From IMG/VR virus record IMGVR_UViG_2711768166_000003: DNA of 37,277 nt; one strand, written 5' to 3'. Positions 14,503 to 19,653 of the stretch are shown here, one piece after another; the stretch's first letter is position 1, and each line of letters begins with the position of its first letter. Source of the DNA: a virus. Taxonomy: Duplodnaviria; Heunggongvirae; Uroviricota; Caudoviricetes. Made by a program: the position numbers and the translations under genes. The notes under the pieces are model-generated. The model was not told where the DNA came from. It did not search any database and saw only the letters and a list, made by a program, of their open reading frames with translations.

Positions 14503-14519
14503 TTTTGTGGAGAAAGTTG

Positions 14520-14876
14520 ATGCGTGATATGTATGAAGTAATGGATCGTTGGGGAGCTTGGGCTGCTTCAGACAATAGCGGAGTGGACTGGCAGCCGATA
14601 GCGGCTGGTTTCAAGGGACTTTTACCTCATGGCAAAAAGTCACGGATTCAGTGTGATGATGACGAAGGCATCATGATAGACAGTTGTGTGGCTCGGTTGA
14701 GAAGGTATAAACCAGAGGAATATGAGCTCATCATCGCCCACTTTGTTATCGGTATCTCATTACGCACTATTGCGAAGAAGAGAAAATGCTCTGATGGCAC
14801 AATTAGGAAGGAACTGCAAACTGCAATGGGGTTTGTTGATGGCTGTTTAGCAATGTTAGCTTATAGTATGGCATAA
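14520..14876 (+). CDS. Late-gene antiterminator Q (QuuD-type)
   Basis: MRDMYEVMDRWGAWAA ... IAAGFKGL ... SRIQCDDDEG ... CSDGTIRKELQTAMGFVDG parallels the recalled QuuD-family sequence; start at ATG 14520 after a GGAGAAAG RBS. Confidence 0.85.
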   Translation: MRDMYEVMDRWGAWAASDNSGVDWQPIAAGFKGLLPHGKKSRIQCDDDEGIMIDSCVARLRRYKPEEYELIIAHFVIGISLRTIAKKRKCSDGTIRKELQTAMGFVDGCLAMLAYSMA

Positions 14877-16070
14877 AAAATAAAATAGATTTACTGCCGA
14901 TTTTTCAAAAAAGACTGGGAACTGTTTATATCCAACGTAAATAAGGCCTCCATAAAACATGGCTGATGCGAGATATTTAACAGTTCTCATCCTTTTTTTA
15001 GCTTTATCAATCAAACCTGTAATGCTACTCTTAATACTATCTGCATTATCTTTGATTTCTTTATTTTCTTCAAACTTTAAATACTTATCGAAAGCGGACT
15101 CCACTCGAGAACGTAAGTTGTCGAATGTTTCATTGAATATCTCAATAGAAATGTAATTGACTTTTTTTATCATCCAAAGTCCTGCGATAATCAATATTGC
15201 TTCGGTTGTTTCATTAGCCTTCACTAAGCCACCAGCTGCTATTAATGCACCGGGAATAGTCAATGCTTTTGTCTGATTAGATGATATGAATTCGTTAATT
15301 TTACTCGTGAACTCAAGATTTTTCTCATCGAGTTCGTTAAGAATTTTATTTACAGAAAACCTCTTTGTGTAAATCTCATATAGTTCATCATATTTTTTCC
15401 TGACGAGTTCAGTAGAGTTAAGCAAGTCAAAGAAATTGAACGTACCATTTGCTTTAAATACTTCGTTTATGGCTGAGCGTATAACGAGCTTGCGCTCGCT
15501 TTTGTGTAAATCATTGATTTTTATTGTGTCGAGAAGCTCCTTTACAATTTCATATTTAAGAGACGAGTTCGATAAGCGATTAATCTCGCTATATTGTAAA
15601 AAATGCGTGAGTTCGACTGTATAACTTTTGTCTTCATTGGTGAAAAATAAGACAGAGCAGTCACTGTTATGATGATCAGAAATTAATGAAAGGATATCTT
15701 TCCACATAAAGAAAATATGGATTTTTTCGATGCTTTCATTCTTAGAAGTAGGGAGTATTAACGGCGTTCCGATGATATAATTTTTCGGAAGAGCGTTTTG
15801 GGTGTTTACTCTAGACCAAAAAGACTCAACATTCTCATAAATTATAGCATCATCCCAAGATGAAGCTTGGCGATCTAGCCAAATTTCATTATTTTCGATG
15901 CAGGTTGTTGCCTTTTTATAACCTATAGATTGTAACAGTCTAATTATTTCAGAACTATTTACAATAACAATGCTTTCTTCAAGACTTATGACAGTGTAGT
16001 AGCCCTCAACTCTGCTTGAGGCTCCGTTAATAATCTGCGCTAATCTTGATAAGTCATCAGCAATTGTCAT
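14856..16070 (-). CDS. AT-rich cargo gene B: protein with predicted C-terminal transmembrane helices (candidate effector)
   Basis: 404 aa; hydrophobic segments ALTIPGALIAAGGLV, AILIIAGLWMI and YLASAMFYGGLIYVGY in the last third; start ATG 2 nt after the stop of gene A; 3' end overlaps the Q gene convergently by 21 bp. Confidence 0.75.
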   Translation of the reverse strand: MTIADDLSRLAQIINGASSRVEGYYTVISLEESIVIVNSSEIIRLLQSIGYKKATTCIENNEIWLDRQASSWDDAIIYENVESFWSRVNTQNALPKNYIIGTPLILPTSKNESIEKIHIFFMWKDILSLISDHHNSDCSVLFFTNEDKSYTVELTHFLQYSEINRLSNSSLKYEIVKELLDTIKINDLHKSERKLVIRSAINEVFKANGTFNFFDLLNSTELVRKKYDELYEIYTKRFSVNKILNELDEKNLEFTSKINEFISSNQTKALTIPGALIAAGGLVKANETTEAILIIAGLWMIKKVNYISIEIFNETFDNLRSRVESAFDKYLKFEENKEIKDNADSIKSSITGLIDKAKKRMRTVKYLASAMFYGGLIYVGYKQFPVFFEKSAVNLFYFLCHTIS

Positions 16071-16072
16071 TA

Positions 16073-17248
16073 TTAGCTGTCTCTATATCTTTTGAGTTCA
16101 TCATAATTTGCCTGACTCAATTTTATCACAATTTCGCATTTGTTGTCAGTGAGAATTACAGGCTTATTTGACTTTTCGTCTCCAATAGCTCCACGCATTA
16201 TTTTCAACTTAAAATTATTGTCGTTATCTGCCACTTCAATTGTAAGCGCGCTTTCAGCTGCTTTAGGAGTTGGTTCAAATTGAGGGTCAATCTGGAAACC
16301 ATTAAGATTAACAAAATCGACAAACGTTCCCTTACATTTGTGTGAATCAGTCAGGCATGAGTCAATTATTTTTGAAATATCCTCTATCTTAACGGACTTA
16401 TTTCCGTGTTTATCTTTTGATTTTTTTTCCAGTAAGGATTTAACTTCATTGTCAATAGTATCACGCAGTACACGACCGAGTGAGTTTTTACTAGCAAAAA
16501 TATCTATAGCACTGAATAATTGCTGAATGCTTCTTTTATTGTCCGAATCATGTCGGCAACCTAATGAGTCTTTGAAAAAATCGCTTTTAGATTTACCTTG
16601 CAAGAAATGTACATATGAGTCACCCTTGTTTTCTGGATAACTGGCTTCGAATAAAGTTAAATCGAACATCGCAGCCTGCCGTAAGGCATCGGTATTAATT
16701 GGATTTAATCTTGTTGGGGTCAACTTATCCGAATCAAAGTCATAGGCGCTTTGTTTATCAACCATTACGATTAGAAGTTTCCCCAAATCCTCTGGTTCGG
16801 TAGACTTATAGTGGATGAAAACAACGCTCCCCCCCTGAAGTTGGGCAACTCTCGATTCGTTATTAGCATTATGTTTAAGCTTCTCTATTATAGCTCTAGA
16901 TAAATCAATGAATTCATTATTTTTATTAATGTATTTTTTTAGGATCGTAGGAATGGATGAAGGGTTGTGATCTGAGTCTAGGAAGTTATGAAATTTGTTT
17001 TTTCGGCTAAATTTTTTCTCAATTCTGGTTATGAATTCAGATGTGACTTCATTTTTTAGATCCCAAACTTCACCTAATCGATAATCAAATGCTCTTGAAT
17101 CATTTTTTTCAAGATTTGCTGTTACAGCACCAATAGGAAAGTACGATTGTTTGCCCAGCACTACAACATGAGGCGTGGCACCGCATTTATCGCAAGCTAC
17201 AGTTGGGTCGTCAAGAACATTGCCACATTCTAAACAAGTTATATCCAT
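16073..17248 (-). CDS. AT-rich cargo gene A: N-terminal zinc ribbon plus NA37/YejK-like nucleoid-associated domain
   Basis: 391 aa; N-terminal CLECG-x12-CDKCG; central region aligns by eye to YejK (GGSVVFIHY vs GGFVLFCHY; ...DLT...FL.GK...). Family assignment is from memory, not a search. Confidence 0.7.
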   Translation of the reverse strand: MDITCLECGNVLDDPTVACDKCGATPHVVVLGKQSYFPIGAVTANLEKNDSRAFDYRLGEVWDLKNEVTSEFITRIEKKFSRKNKFHNFLDSDHNPSSIPTILKKYINKNNEFIDLSRAIIEKLKHNANNESRVAQLQGGSVVFIHYKSTEPEDLGKLLIVMVDKQSAYDFDSDKLTPTRLNPINTDALRQAAMFDLTLFEASYPENKGDSYVHFLQGKSKSDFFKDSLGCRHDSDNKRSIQQLFSAIDIFASKNSLGRVLRDTIDNEVKSLLEKKSKDKHGNKSVKIEDISKIIDSCLTDSHKCKGTFVDFVNLNGFQIDPQFEPTPKAAESALTIEVADNDNNFKLKIMRGAIGDEKSNKPVILTDNKCEIVIKLSQANYDELKRYRDS

Positions 17249-17365
17249 TATATATCCCGAATTATAAGAATGAATTTTTATGTGGCTGAAAATTCTATCA
17301 AAACACTAACGCGTACGCAAAAAATATCGTAATCTGTTAAGTGTGCTCACTTCGCCACACAGCTT

Positions 17366-17397
17366 AAACCCGCCATCGAGCGGGTTTTGTCGTTTCT
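17366..17397 (+). terminator. tR'-like rho-independent terminator upstream of the lysis cassette
   Basis: AAACCCGC-catcga-GCGGGTTT followed by TGTCGTTTC; about 145 bp upstream of the holin start. Confidence 0.6.
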
Positions 17398-17539: not shown

Positions 17540-17866
17540 ATGCCTCATAACCCAAATACATGGCTGGAGTTGGTCCAGAGCTGGTGGCGTGGAGACACAC
17601 CGCTGGGCGCAGTGATTATGTCGATTGTTATGGCTGGTTTACGTATTGCCTATTTTGGCGGTGGTGGCGGCTGGAAGCGAAAAACACTCGAAATTCTACT
17701 CTGTGGCGCTCTGACGCTGACTTTTGCATCCGCTCTTGAGTATGTCGGATGGCCTAAATCACTATCTGTTGCCATTGGTGGTGGGGTGGGGCTGATCGGT
17801 GTTGATGCTATTCGTGGGGCTGCAATGAGAGTAATCGGTAACAAGTTTGGTGGCTCTAAGGAGTAA
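17540..17866 (+). CDS. Holin (lambda S-like)
   Basis: 108 aa with hydrophobic helices and a charged C-terminus; architecture parallels lambda S; immediately upstream of the endolysin gene. Confidence 0.8.
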   Translation: MPHNPNTWLELVQSWWRGDTPLGAVIMSIVMAGLRIAYFGGGGGWKRKTLEILLCGALTLTFASALEYVGWPKSLSVAIGGGVGLIGVDAIRGAAMRVIGNKFGGSKE

Positions 17867-18838: not shown

Positions 18839-19129
18839 TTATGAGCAATACACCCGCGCTTCCAGCGGAGTATAAATGCCTAAAGTAATAAAACCGAGCA
18901 ATCCATTTACGAATGTTTGCTGGGTTTCTGTTTTAACAACATTTTCTGCGCCGCCACAAATTTTGGCTGCATCAACAGTTTTCTGCTGTCCAATTCCCGA
19001 AACGAAGAAATGATGGGTGATGGTTTCCTTTGGTGTTACTGCTGTCGGTTTGTTTCCAACAGTAAACGTCTGTTGAGCACATCCTGTAATAAGCATTGCC
19101 AGAGCGGCAGAAAACAACATTTTTTTCAT
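18839..19129 (-). CDS. bor: Bor lipoprotein (serum-resistance-associated)
   Basis: MKKMLFSAALAMLITGCAQQTFTV ... ETITHHFFVSGIGQQKTVDAAKICGGAENVVKTETQQTFVNGLLGFITLGIYTPLEARVYCS closely matches lambda Bor; start at the lipoprotein-signal Met, not the longer track ORF. Confidence 0.9.
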   Translation of the reverse strand: MKKMLFSAALAMLITGCAQQTFTVGNKPTAVTPKETITHHFFVSGIGQQKTVDAAKICGGAENVVKTETQQTFVNGLLGFITLGIYTPLEARVYCS

Positions 19130-19653
19130 CTTATTATCCTGCATTGTTAAAAACGGCAGAATCCTATGTGACAACAATTAAACGATAGTTAAATGGATTG
19201 ATGAAAATTAAAACTATATAGGTGTACGGTCAGACTATTGGAGGTAGTCAGGATTTGAATGTCAGTCTGTTGTCGGCATTCTGGCAATGCAATTTGGATA
19301 AAGCGGGGATTAAAAAGATAGAAGCGAGCCGGTCAGGTAGAAATGAATCAGGCTCAAAGTGAAGCGGAAAAGGTCTGTGGCACAAACTGATGCTGCCATA
19401 ATTACAGCCTGATGACTTGTGGAATGAAACATGTTGAACTTCCTTAATTGATGTGATTCGAGTGAGGAAGGCATTCTGTCCCTCTATAGTGTCCATTAAT
19501 TCAAACGGGAAATTTGTCTCATGCGTGAGACAAGTCTCTCCATTAGTGAGTTGTATTGATTGCGACTCTTCAAAGAATCCATTACTGCGTTGATGAAAAA
19601 GGTTTACTACGAATGAAGGCAGCTATTTCGCTGGTTTCTTCATTGGAGTACAT

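Follow-up and report, generated by a model that had tools for sequence, protein, structure and literature searches.

The 37,277-nucleotide (nt) stretch of the tailed-phage record IMGVR_UViG_2711768166_000003 (hereafter the window, to which all positions refer) carries two adjacent minus-strand genes that almost certainly constitute the prophage anti-phage system DS-1. Gene A (16073..17248, minus strand) encodes a 391-amino acid (aa) YejK-like (NA37) nucleoid-associated anti-phage protein that corresponds to DS-1A, and gene B (14856..16070, minus strand) encodes its 404-aa effector partner, DS-1B. The assignment is carried first of all by two curated equivalog models of NCBIfam release 20: A matches NF053868 (DS1_1_antiphage, nucleoid-associated anti-phage protein) with 451.4 bits against a cutoff of 330 (E-value 2e-135, profile positions 3-369 of 369), and B matches NF053869 (DS1_2_antiphage) with 374.9 bits against a cutoff of 315 (E 4e-112, profile positions 1-337 of 337). 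The same E-values identify A and B as genuine genes and not chance open reading frames (ORFs), and B furthermore matches phrog_5023 (E 6e-158). At the level of single residues, A is identical to DS-1A (WP_000355468.1) over all 391 of 391 positions of the sequence printed in Table S8 of the original publication, and B agrees with DS-1B (WP_000150292.1) at 397 of the 399 residues printed there (the last five are not printed), the two differences being the conservative substitutions S131A and V176I. The exact sequence of B is deposited as WP_045133316.1.

DS-1 received its name in the DefensePredictor study of DeWeirdt, Mahoney and Laub (bioRxiv January 2025, 10.1101/2025.01.08.631726; Science 2026, PMC13092281), where it bears the working ID D390 and was taken from another E. 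coli strain (NZ_RRVY01000002.1, 220602-222994). This reference span of 2,393 base pairs (bp) is exactly as long as 14856-17248, gene order and protein lengths (391 and 404 aa) match, and the DS-1 layout of co-oriented adjacent genes with the NA37 gene in first position is likewise found in the window. In the tables of the same study, WP_000355468.1 is described as a 391-aa protein with a YejK/NA37 domain and a NinF-like zinc ribbon (HHpred) and WP_000150292.1 as a 404-aa hypothetical protein (bioRxiv 10.1101/2025.01.08.631726; PMC13092281). The pair is hence already known: it is named, published, experimentally validated and covered by curated annotation models, and the novelty implied by the original prediction, in which the pair was not recognised as any named defence system, is not supported. 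The PADLOC v2 (2023) library returned no family for either protein at E-values up to 1; this library predates DS-1, and an argument for novelty from the missing PADLOC v2 match was rejected because both NCBIfam and the literature name the system.

For the published phenotype, E. coli MG1655 carrying the DS-1 operon under its native promoter on a plasmid of low copy number was challenged with 24 phages (DefensePredictor, PMC13092281). The strongest effect was recorded for Bas1, with a -log10 efficiency of plating (EOP) of 7.6 and no plaques, followed by Bas26 (2.7), Bas3 and T3 (1.7 each), T5 (1.0) and T7 (0.9); plaques of Bas26, Bas3, T3 and T7 were small, and for SECphi27 the value was about 0, with small plaques as the only effect (Table S7, PMC13092281). 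These plating reductions were reported for the reference operon only. The original prediction had reasoned that a nucleic-acid-binding protein combined with a membrane-type partner in a prophage would fit phage defence, and the published DS-1 experiments, performed on essentially the same sequences, bear this out. That the pair in the window defends against phage is in our view very probable. One might instead assume a non-defensive role, in which a prophage nucleoid protein and an accessory membrane protein would serve prophage or host regulation or lysogenic conversion and the plating effects would be cloning artefacts. YejK-family proteins are bona fide nucleoid proteins, no recognisable catalytic domain was found in A or B, and DS-1 has a single screen entry per phage, all of which would be compatible with such a role. 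It is nevertheless extremely improbable, given that DS-1 is flagged as replicated in the DefensePredictor table (PMC13092281), that the EOP drops by up to 7 logs with the native promoter on a low-copy plasmid, that an independent study found NA37 operons with transmembrane (TM) effectors to be defensive, and that sister prophages carry Kiwa and PDC-M53 in the same genomic slot while distant homologues reside in defence islands.

The NA37/YejK core of A spans aa 64-376 (16121..17059, minus strand) and matches PF04245 with 84.5 bits (cutoff 24.6, E 1.2e-23). A resemblance to this family had been noted by eye, together with the advice to run a profile search, and it is confirmed both by that search and by structure comparison. 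In the AlphaFold model of A, which was predicted as a monomer (49 homologues; predicted local distance difference test, pLDDT, 85; predicted template modelling score, pTM, 0.79), the sole significant Foldseek match in the PDB was E. coli YejK (9be2; E 1.9e-14, probability 1.0), with 359 aligned columns, a template modelling score of 0.43-0.49 and about 19% identity; the next match followed at an E-value of 0.15. Sequence profile comparison also connects A to YejK 9be2 (E 1.9e-19), and the phmmer alignment to 9be2_A spans aa 64-324. Against the YejK equivalog model NF001557, A reached 81.4 bits and thus remained below the cutoff of 341. Judged by its sequence, A is a paralogue and not YejK itself.

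YejK (NdpA; PF04245) forms a dimeric clamp on DNA, which it binds through basic residues of its pore (R173/R176/K177 and R276/R280/K284; PDB 9be2). The N-domain patch appears to be partly retained in A, where the stretch GKSKSDFFK (with K219, K221 and K226) aligns with R173/R176/K177 such that K219 and K221 fall at or beside YejK R176/K177 and K226 lies nearby. In the A family, G218 and S220 are invariant and K226 is nearly so; the C-domain patch of YejK (R276/R280/K284) falls beyond the confident alignment. While fold and family are shared, E. coli YejK is a stand-alone housekeeping gene product devoid of a zinc ribbon, whereas A possesses an additional N-terminal zinc ribbon and is always paired with B. 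This zinc ribbon (aa 5-22; 17183..17236, minus strand) comprises C5, C8, C19 and C22. The cysteine motif had thus been recognised in the original prediction, but its spacing as read from the sequence is CxxC-x10-CxxC and not CxxC-x12-CxxC. All Pfam zinc-ribbon matches of A were sub-threshold (E 0.07-0.28), and the region is modelled with low confidence (pLDDT 51-65); in the DefensePredictor supplement, the zinc ribbon of DS-1A is given as NinF-like by HHpred (86%; bioRxiv 10.1101/2025.01.08.631726). It occurs in 46 of the 51 NA37 ORFs that are paired with a B homologue, marine relatives included, and is missing from the Pseudomonas-type members, which still keep their B partner.

For B, the AlphaFold model (pLDDT 82, pTM 0.61) predicts an alpha/beta N-terminal domain followed by very long helices at aa 220-282, 288-333, 337-383 and 385-403. 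The N-terminal domain (aa 1-215, with an approximate end; 15426..16070, minus strand; pLDDT about 90) is variable, with 23-51% of the members matching the window residue per 20-aa block among 45 homologues, and it is acidic (isoelectric point, pI, 5.2 and net charge -8; family median pI 5.0 and net charge -9). The C-terminal part is basic (pI about 9) and contains a near-invariant core at aa 221-285 (KKYDELYEIYTKRFSVNK...TSKINEF...QTKALTIPGALIAAGGLVK; 15216..15410, minus strand), in which 67-84% of the members match per 20-aa block and which accommodates 17 of the 23 invariant columns. This core makes up most of helix 220-282 and runs directly into a hydrophobic helical hairpin (aa 267-305; 15156..15272, minus strand) at the turn from helix 220-282 to helix 288-333, which reads TKALTIPGALIAAGGLV / KANETTE / AILIIAGLWMIKKV, its hydrophobic stretches being ALTIPGALIAAGGLV-KANETTE-AILIIAGLWMI.

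The membrane character of B was judged from Kyte-Doolittle hydropathy. For the hairpin, 15-residue windows give 1.89 and 1.51 and the family-mean 19-residue window 1.61; the C-terminal hydrophobic helices (aa 363-404; 14859..14984, minus strand), which comprise the end of helix 337-383 and helix 385-403, give 1.25 and 1.23 in 15-residue windows, with a family-mean peak of 1.35 at aa 367-385. The maxima for the entire protein (1.56 for 19 and 1.89 for 15 residues) are borderline for TM helices, and the hydrophobic stretches form the tips of very long predicted helices. Accordingly, the C-terminal TM helices of the original prediction are retained in part: hydrophobic helix tips are indeed present, but their hydropathy is only borderline. 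B probably inserts in the membrane. Apart from the DS1_2 model, no Pfam, NCBIfam or PDB match was found for B, and the B-type effector has no recognisable fold relative; it may represent a new class of membrane effector gated by a nucleoid-associated protein (NAP). A classification of B as a CorA/ClyA-type membrane protein was considered and rejected, as neither a specific fold match nor the CorA GMN signature was found.

The association of both genes extends far beyond the window. The original prediction had proposed to examine gene-pair conservation as well as co-occurrence in other prophages and in defence islands, and on both counts homologous pairs were found. Among 55 loci with B homologues, of which 10 came from species-representative genomes and the other 45 were IMG/VR loci, 51 offered room for an upstream gene, and in 49 of these an NA37 gene is located directly upstream of B on the same strand; the two exceptions are broken B ORFs. 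An exhaustive profile search retrieved 731 representative clusters of the B family at E-values up to 1e-3 and 315 at 1e-10, and also in distant family members NA37 lies immediately upstream (3 of 3 informative cases). The pairing of NA37 and effector is near-universal across the large B family. In P. aeruginosa, the gene after NA37 codes for a B homologue of 425 aa (probability 100% in hhalign, E 1e-54), and in the marine Pseudoteredinibacter the pair is found inside a defence island together with AAA_15/21, DUF4145 and AbiEii genes. Of 5,426 complete E. coli genomes, 106 contain the full Q-DS-1-holin arrangement, as do three plasmid records; the cassette was present in no INPHARED record of a sequenced phage and is carried by the 45 IMG/VR viral contigs.

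Several individual loci deserve mention in their own right. At the P. aeruginosa loci L004-L006 (5001-7422), a zinc-ribbon-less NA37 gene and its B homologue adjoin a Pf-like filamentous prophage (Zot, DUF2523), which is a different mobile-element context for the A/B pair. In three of the 45 IMG/VR copies (L034, L040 and L041), the stop-free NA37 segment measures only 121-270 aa and B is intact, which suggests inactivation of gene A in some lysogens. The sole non-gammaproteobacterial label among the genome matches for the pair belongs to locus L012 (JAATEZ010000277.1), a 2.6-kb contig from a metagenome-assembled genome assigned to 'Lactobacillales', which contains just the pair, at about 37% identity to B; the contig was probably misplaced during binning and hence does not point to a Firmicutes host.

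The mode of action of DS-1 was not dissected in the DefensePredictor study, which counts the YejK domain among the domains newly implicated in defence (PMC13092281). The closest parallel is provided by PANGU (Li et al., April 2026), in which operons with YejK-like NAPs were found to be abortive-infection systems: the NAP resides on the nucleoid, is freed when phage nucleases degrade host DNA and then binds an acidic, 'DNA-mimicking' effector domain (bioRxiv 10.64898/2026.04.06.716658). Type II PANGU, exemplified by PANGU-Ecu from a uropathogenic E. coli (UPEC) strain, consists of the NAP Pag2A and of Pag2B, an effector with an acidic domain at its N-terminus and a TM region at its C-terminus. 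PANGU-Ecu requires both of its genes, neither is toxic alone, and growth arrest at a high multiplicity of infection (MOI) resembles abortive infection. Upon T4 infection, Pag2A-GFP leaves the nucleoid, and the acidic domain of Pag2B binds Pag2A with a dissociation constant (KD) of 19 nM. How the type II effector is activated is stated as unsolved by the authors, and 'Cluster 2' is described as a major type of NAP operon (all bioRxiv 10.64898/2026.04.06.716658).

DS-1 shares with type II PANGU, by description and not by sequence, the bicistronic E. coli operon in which a YejK-like NAP precedes the effector, and the effector combines an acidic N-terminal domain with a C-terminal hydrophobic region, the basic C-terminal part of B with its hydrophobic helix tips matching the account given of Pag2B. 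Both are moreover large and widely distributed, as illustrated for DS-1 by the size of the B family. From this architecture, which has been compared by description only, it appears quite likely that DS-1 belongs to type II PANGU; no other paper linking the two was found. The type I system (the NAP Pag1A with the GRel toxSAS Pag1B) follows the same proposed sensor logic, in that the NAP quits the degraded nucleoid and binds a DNA-mimicking effector domain, but its effector is a nucleotide pyrophosphokinase toxin, and B has no such domain. A further difference concerns the zinc ribbon, which is present in A and never mentioned in the preprint (0 occurrences of 'zinc'). This clade-specific element may give A a second sensing input that is missing from YejK and from the published PANGU model.

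On balance, we favour, with some reserve, a type II PANGU-like mechanism as the best overall explanation of how DS-1 acts. In this scenario, A would reside on the host nucleoid as a YejK-type dimeric DNA clamp and would be released when an infecting phage degrades or remodels the host DNA. Released A would then bind the acidic N-terminal domain of B, whereupon the conserved module of long helix and hydrophobic hairpin of B would act on the inner membrane and the infection would be aborted. For this particular route from NAP release via activation of B to the membrane, we see slightly better than even chances; membrane insertion of B and its action there are our own inference from the analysis presented here. 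Host DNA is broken down by T5, T7 and T3, in agreement with a trigger based on genome damage. What weighs against the type II PANGU-like mechanism are the recorded phage spectra, with T4 and Bas34 for PANGU as opposed to Bas1, Bas26 and T3 for DS-1. In this comparison, the T4 result for PANGU-Ecu came from an induced construct with optimised codons, whereas DS-1 was assayed from its native promoter and has no T4 entry.

Another scenario, which we consider unlikely, is that DS-1 confers superinfection exclusion or an early block: A would sense incoming phage DNA or protein, perhaps by means of the zinc ribbon, and B would block entry or early steps at the membrane, so that the cell survives. 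The total loss of Bas1 plaques (EOP below 1e-7) is typical of early blocks, the N-terminal domain of B evolves fastest, as expected for a phage-contacting surface, and the prevalence of the zinc ribbon in the paired NA37 homologues together with its absence from housekeeping YejK suggests an added recognition function. DS-1 is, in addition, prophage-encoded and shares its slot with Kiwa, another two-gene defence system. However, the architecturally matching type II PANGU is an abortive-infection system with growth arrest at high MOI, the partial, small-plaque effects on several unrelated phages are in better agreement with a general trigger, and the B partner persists in Pseudomonas-type members that have no zinc ribbon.

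Less probable still is an independent lineage of NA37-plus-effector operons, separate from type II PANGU and with reversed logic, in which A would restrain B in the manner of a guard or antitoxin and B would be set free once the phage causes A to be lost or titrated away, for instance onto phage DNA. DS-1 has been likened to Pag2A/Pag2B by description, and the PANGU preprint describes NAP-effector operons as polyphyletic, their effectors falling into at least 10 types (bioRxiv 10.64898/2026.04.06.716658). The divergent phage spectra mentioned above would also be in line with a separate origin, and tight translational coupling and obligate co-occurrence are likewise typical of toxin-antitoxin-like pairs. 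On the other hand, neither gene was toxic alone in both PANGU types tested, the type I NAP is an activator, and the invariable pairing of the large B family with NA37 is what would be expected of a major 'TM effector' cluster.

Turning to the genomic setting, most of the original description of the cassette can be adopted unchanged. The two minus-strand ORFs have exactly the predicted coordinates and are tightly coupled, the stop codon TAA of A being followed after 2 nt by the start codon ATG of B (junction TAATAATG). The cassette is AT-rich, with a guanine-cytosine (GC) content of 34.9% across 14877-17248 versus 50.8% in the remaining window. On one side, it is flanked by the antiterminator gene Q (14505..14876, plus strand; PF06530, E 3e-47), which is convergent with B and overlaps its 3' end by 21 bp (14856-14876). 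On the other side follow an intrinsic terminator on the plus strand (17366-17397, with the hairpin stem at 17366-17387 and a T tract to 17397; RNA fold -19.6 kcal/mol, z -2.2) and the gene of a lambda-S-type holin (S; 17540..17866, plus strand; PF05106, E 6e-25). A second AT-rich minus-strand moron (18839-19177, GC about 0.40) is situated just past the Rz-like lysis gene; its counterpart in the near-identical prophage of avian pathogenic E. coli (APEC) O2-211 is annotated as the increased-serum-survival lipoprotein Iss (Bor-like).

Comparison with four sister prophages that carry other cargo indicates that the DS-1 genes form part of an exchangeable cassette. Homology on the Q side stops at 14821-14865 in three of the four and at 14562 in the fourth (L009), and it restarts in all four at 17300-17316. 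These breakpoints place the cassette bounds roughly at 14866..17299, which includes the DS-1 genes and 51 bp of upstream DNA. The adjoining block (17300..17397, plus strand), which ends in the intrinsic terminator, is kept in all five relatives, among them a Klebsiella prophage (pBio30) whose post-terminator DNA and lysis genes differ; because it is preserved even where the lysis genes are different, the block travels with Q. Besides the terminator hairpin, it contains several -10-like hexamers and a TGTTAA that is invariant, and given its linkage to Q it is probably the site pR'/qut/tR' targeted by Q, the leader then being unusually short. No plus-strand consensus promoter passed the scan in 17249-17365 or just after Q. 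If the block is indeed the target of Q, the cargo is inserted between Q and pR' on the opposite strand.

The Shiga toxin genes (stx) lie downstream of pR'-tR' in lambdoid phages. The comparison with this insertion point in the original prediction holds insofar as both are AT-rich cargo that a lambdoid prophage carries in the interval from Q to its lysis genes, but it fails with regard to position: the DS-1 cargo is located on the minus strand upstream of the terminator 17366-17397, flanked by the 3' end of Q on one side and by the conserved block on the other, and on account of this orientation and placement it is probably not Q-dependent. The activity of the cloned operon implies a native promoter, and a candidate sigma-70 promoter was found at 17274..17301 (minus strand; TTGATA, 16-nt spacer, AAAAAT; 9 of 12 matches in a consensus scan). 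Its TTGATA is retained in the Klebsiella DS-1 locus but not in the other-cargo loci, and we infer that it serves as the predicted promoter of the DS-1 operon. In the lysogen, the cargo is probably driven by its own leftward promoter, independently of Q.

The Q family of the window lies just downstream of B in 42 of the 55 loci. At diverged loci, B is merely 41-51% identical to B of the window, whereas Q is still 73-84% identical, and the defence genes accordingly diverge much faster than the backbone. This contrast suggests that, inside a single phage backbone, the defence genes diversify fast or exchange alleles. The diverged pairs are those of L011, L055-L061, L063 and L065, with A being roughly 55% identical in that group.

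The slot itself is occupied by different genes in related prophages. In E. coli MIN6 (L002, 2990-4401) it contains Kiwa, with KwaA and KwaB recognised by PADLOC (E 2e-83 and 2e-150), and in phage SfII (L008, 736-2350) the PADLOC candidate PDC-M53 (orf49/50). Both are two-gene minus-strand cassettes whose boundaries, towards Q and towards the conserved block, coincide with those of DS-1, but their proteins are unrelated to those of DS-1. In E. coli C9 (L010, 789-1789), the slot holds two unannotated genes (246 and 87 aa) for which no credible family match was obtained, the only PADLOC match being one to DndH at chance level (E 0.003). In E. coli MINF_1D (L009, 1022-2172), it holds plus-strand genes for a 175-aa hypothetical protein and a 214-aa protein with a penicillin-binding protein (PBP)-type transglycosylase domain (PF00912, E 2e-23). 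The C9 and MINF_1D cassettes are candidate uncharacterised defence or exclusion genes, and the slot between Q and pR' may be a systematic defence hotspot. In a limited literature search, we found no earlier description of the Q-holin slot as such.

Summed up, a real defence system had been inferred here from the raw sequence alone. As a discovery it adds little, since DS-1 has been published and validated and already serves NCBI in annotation. New is the context, in which DS-1 goes together with a single Q family and occupies an exchangeable cassette that separates Q from the promoter it probably targets, together with the near-universal pairing of NA37 and effector, the large effector family, and a slot that is shared with Kiwa, PDC-M53 and two unknown cassettes. 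What makes the system worth pursuing is the activation mechanism of B, the zinc ribbon of A and the hotspot beside Q, including the two cassettes in it that are uncharacterised, the mechanistic question in the literature being how a released DNA clamp switches on a helical effector. A joint reading, according to which DS-1 would combine a new class of NAP-gated effector with a zinc ribbon as second sensor and a Q-to-pR' hotspot that harbours new systems, is put forward tentatively and with considerable doubt. Should the slot prove to be a systematic hotspot, the cassettes found there in E. coli C9 and MINF_1D would count as new defence systems.

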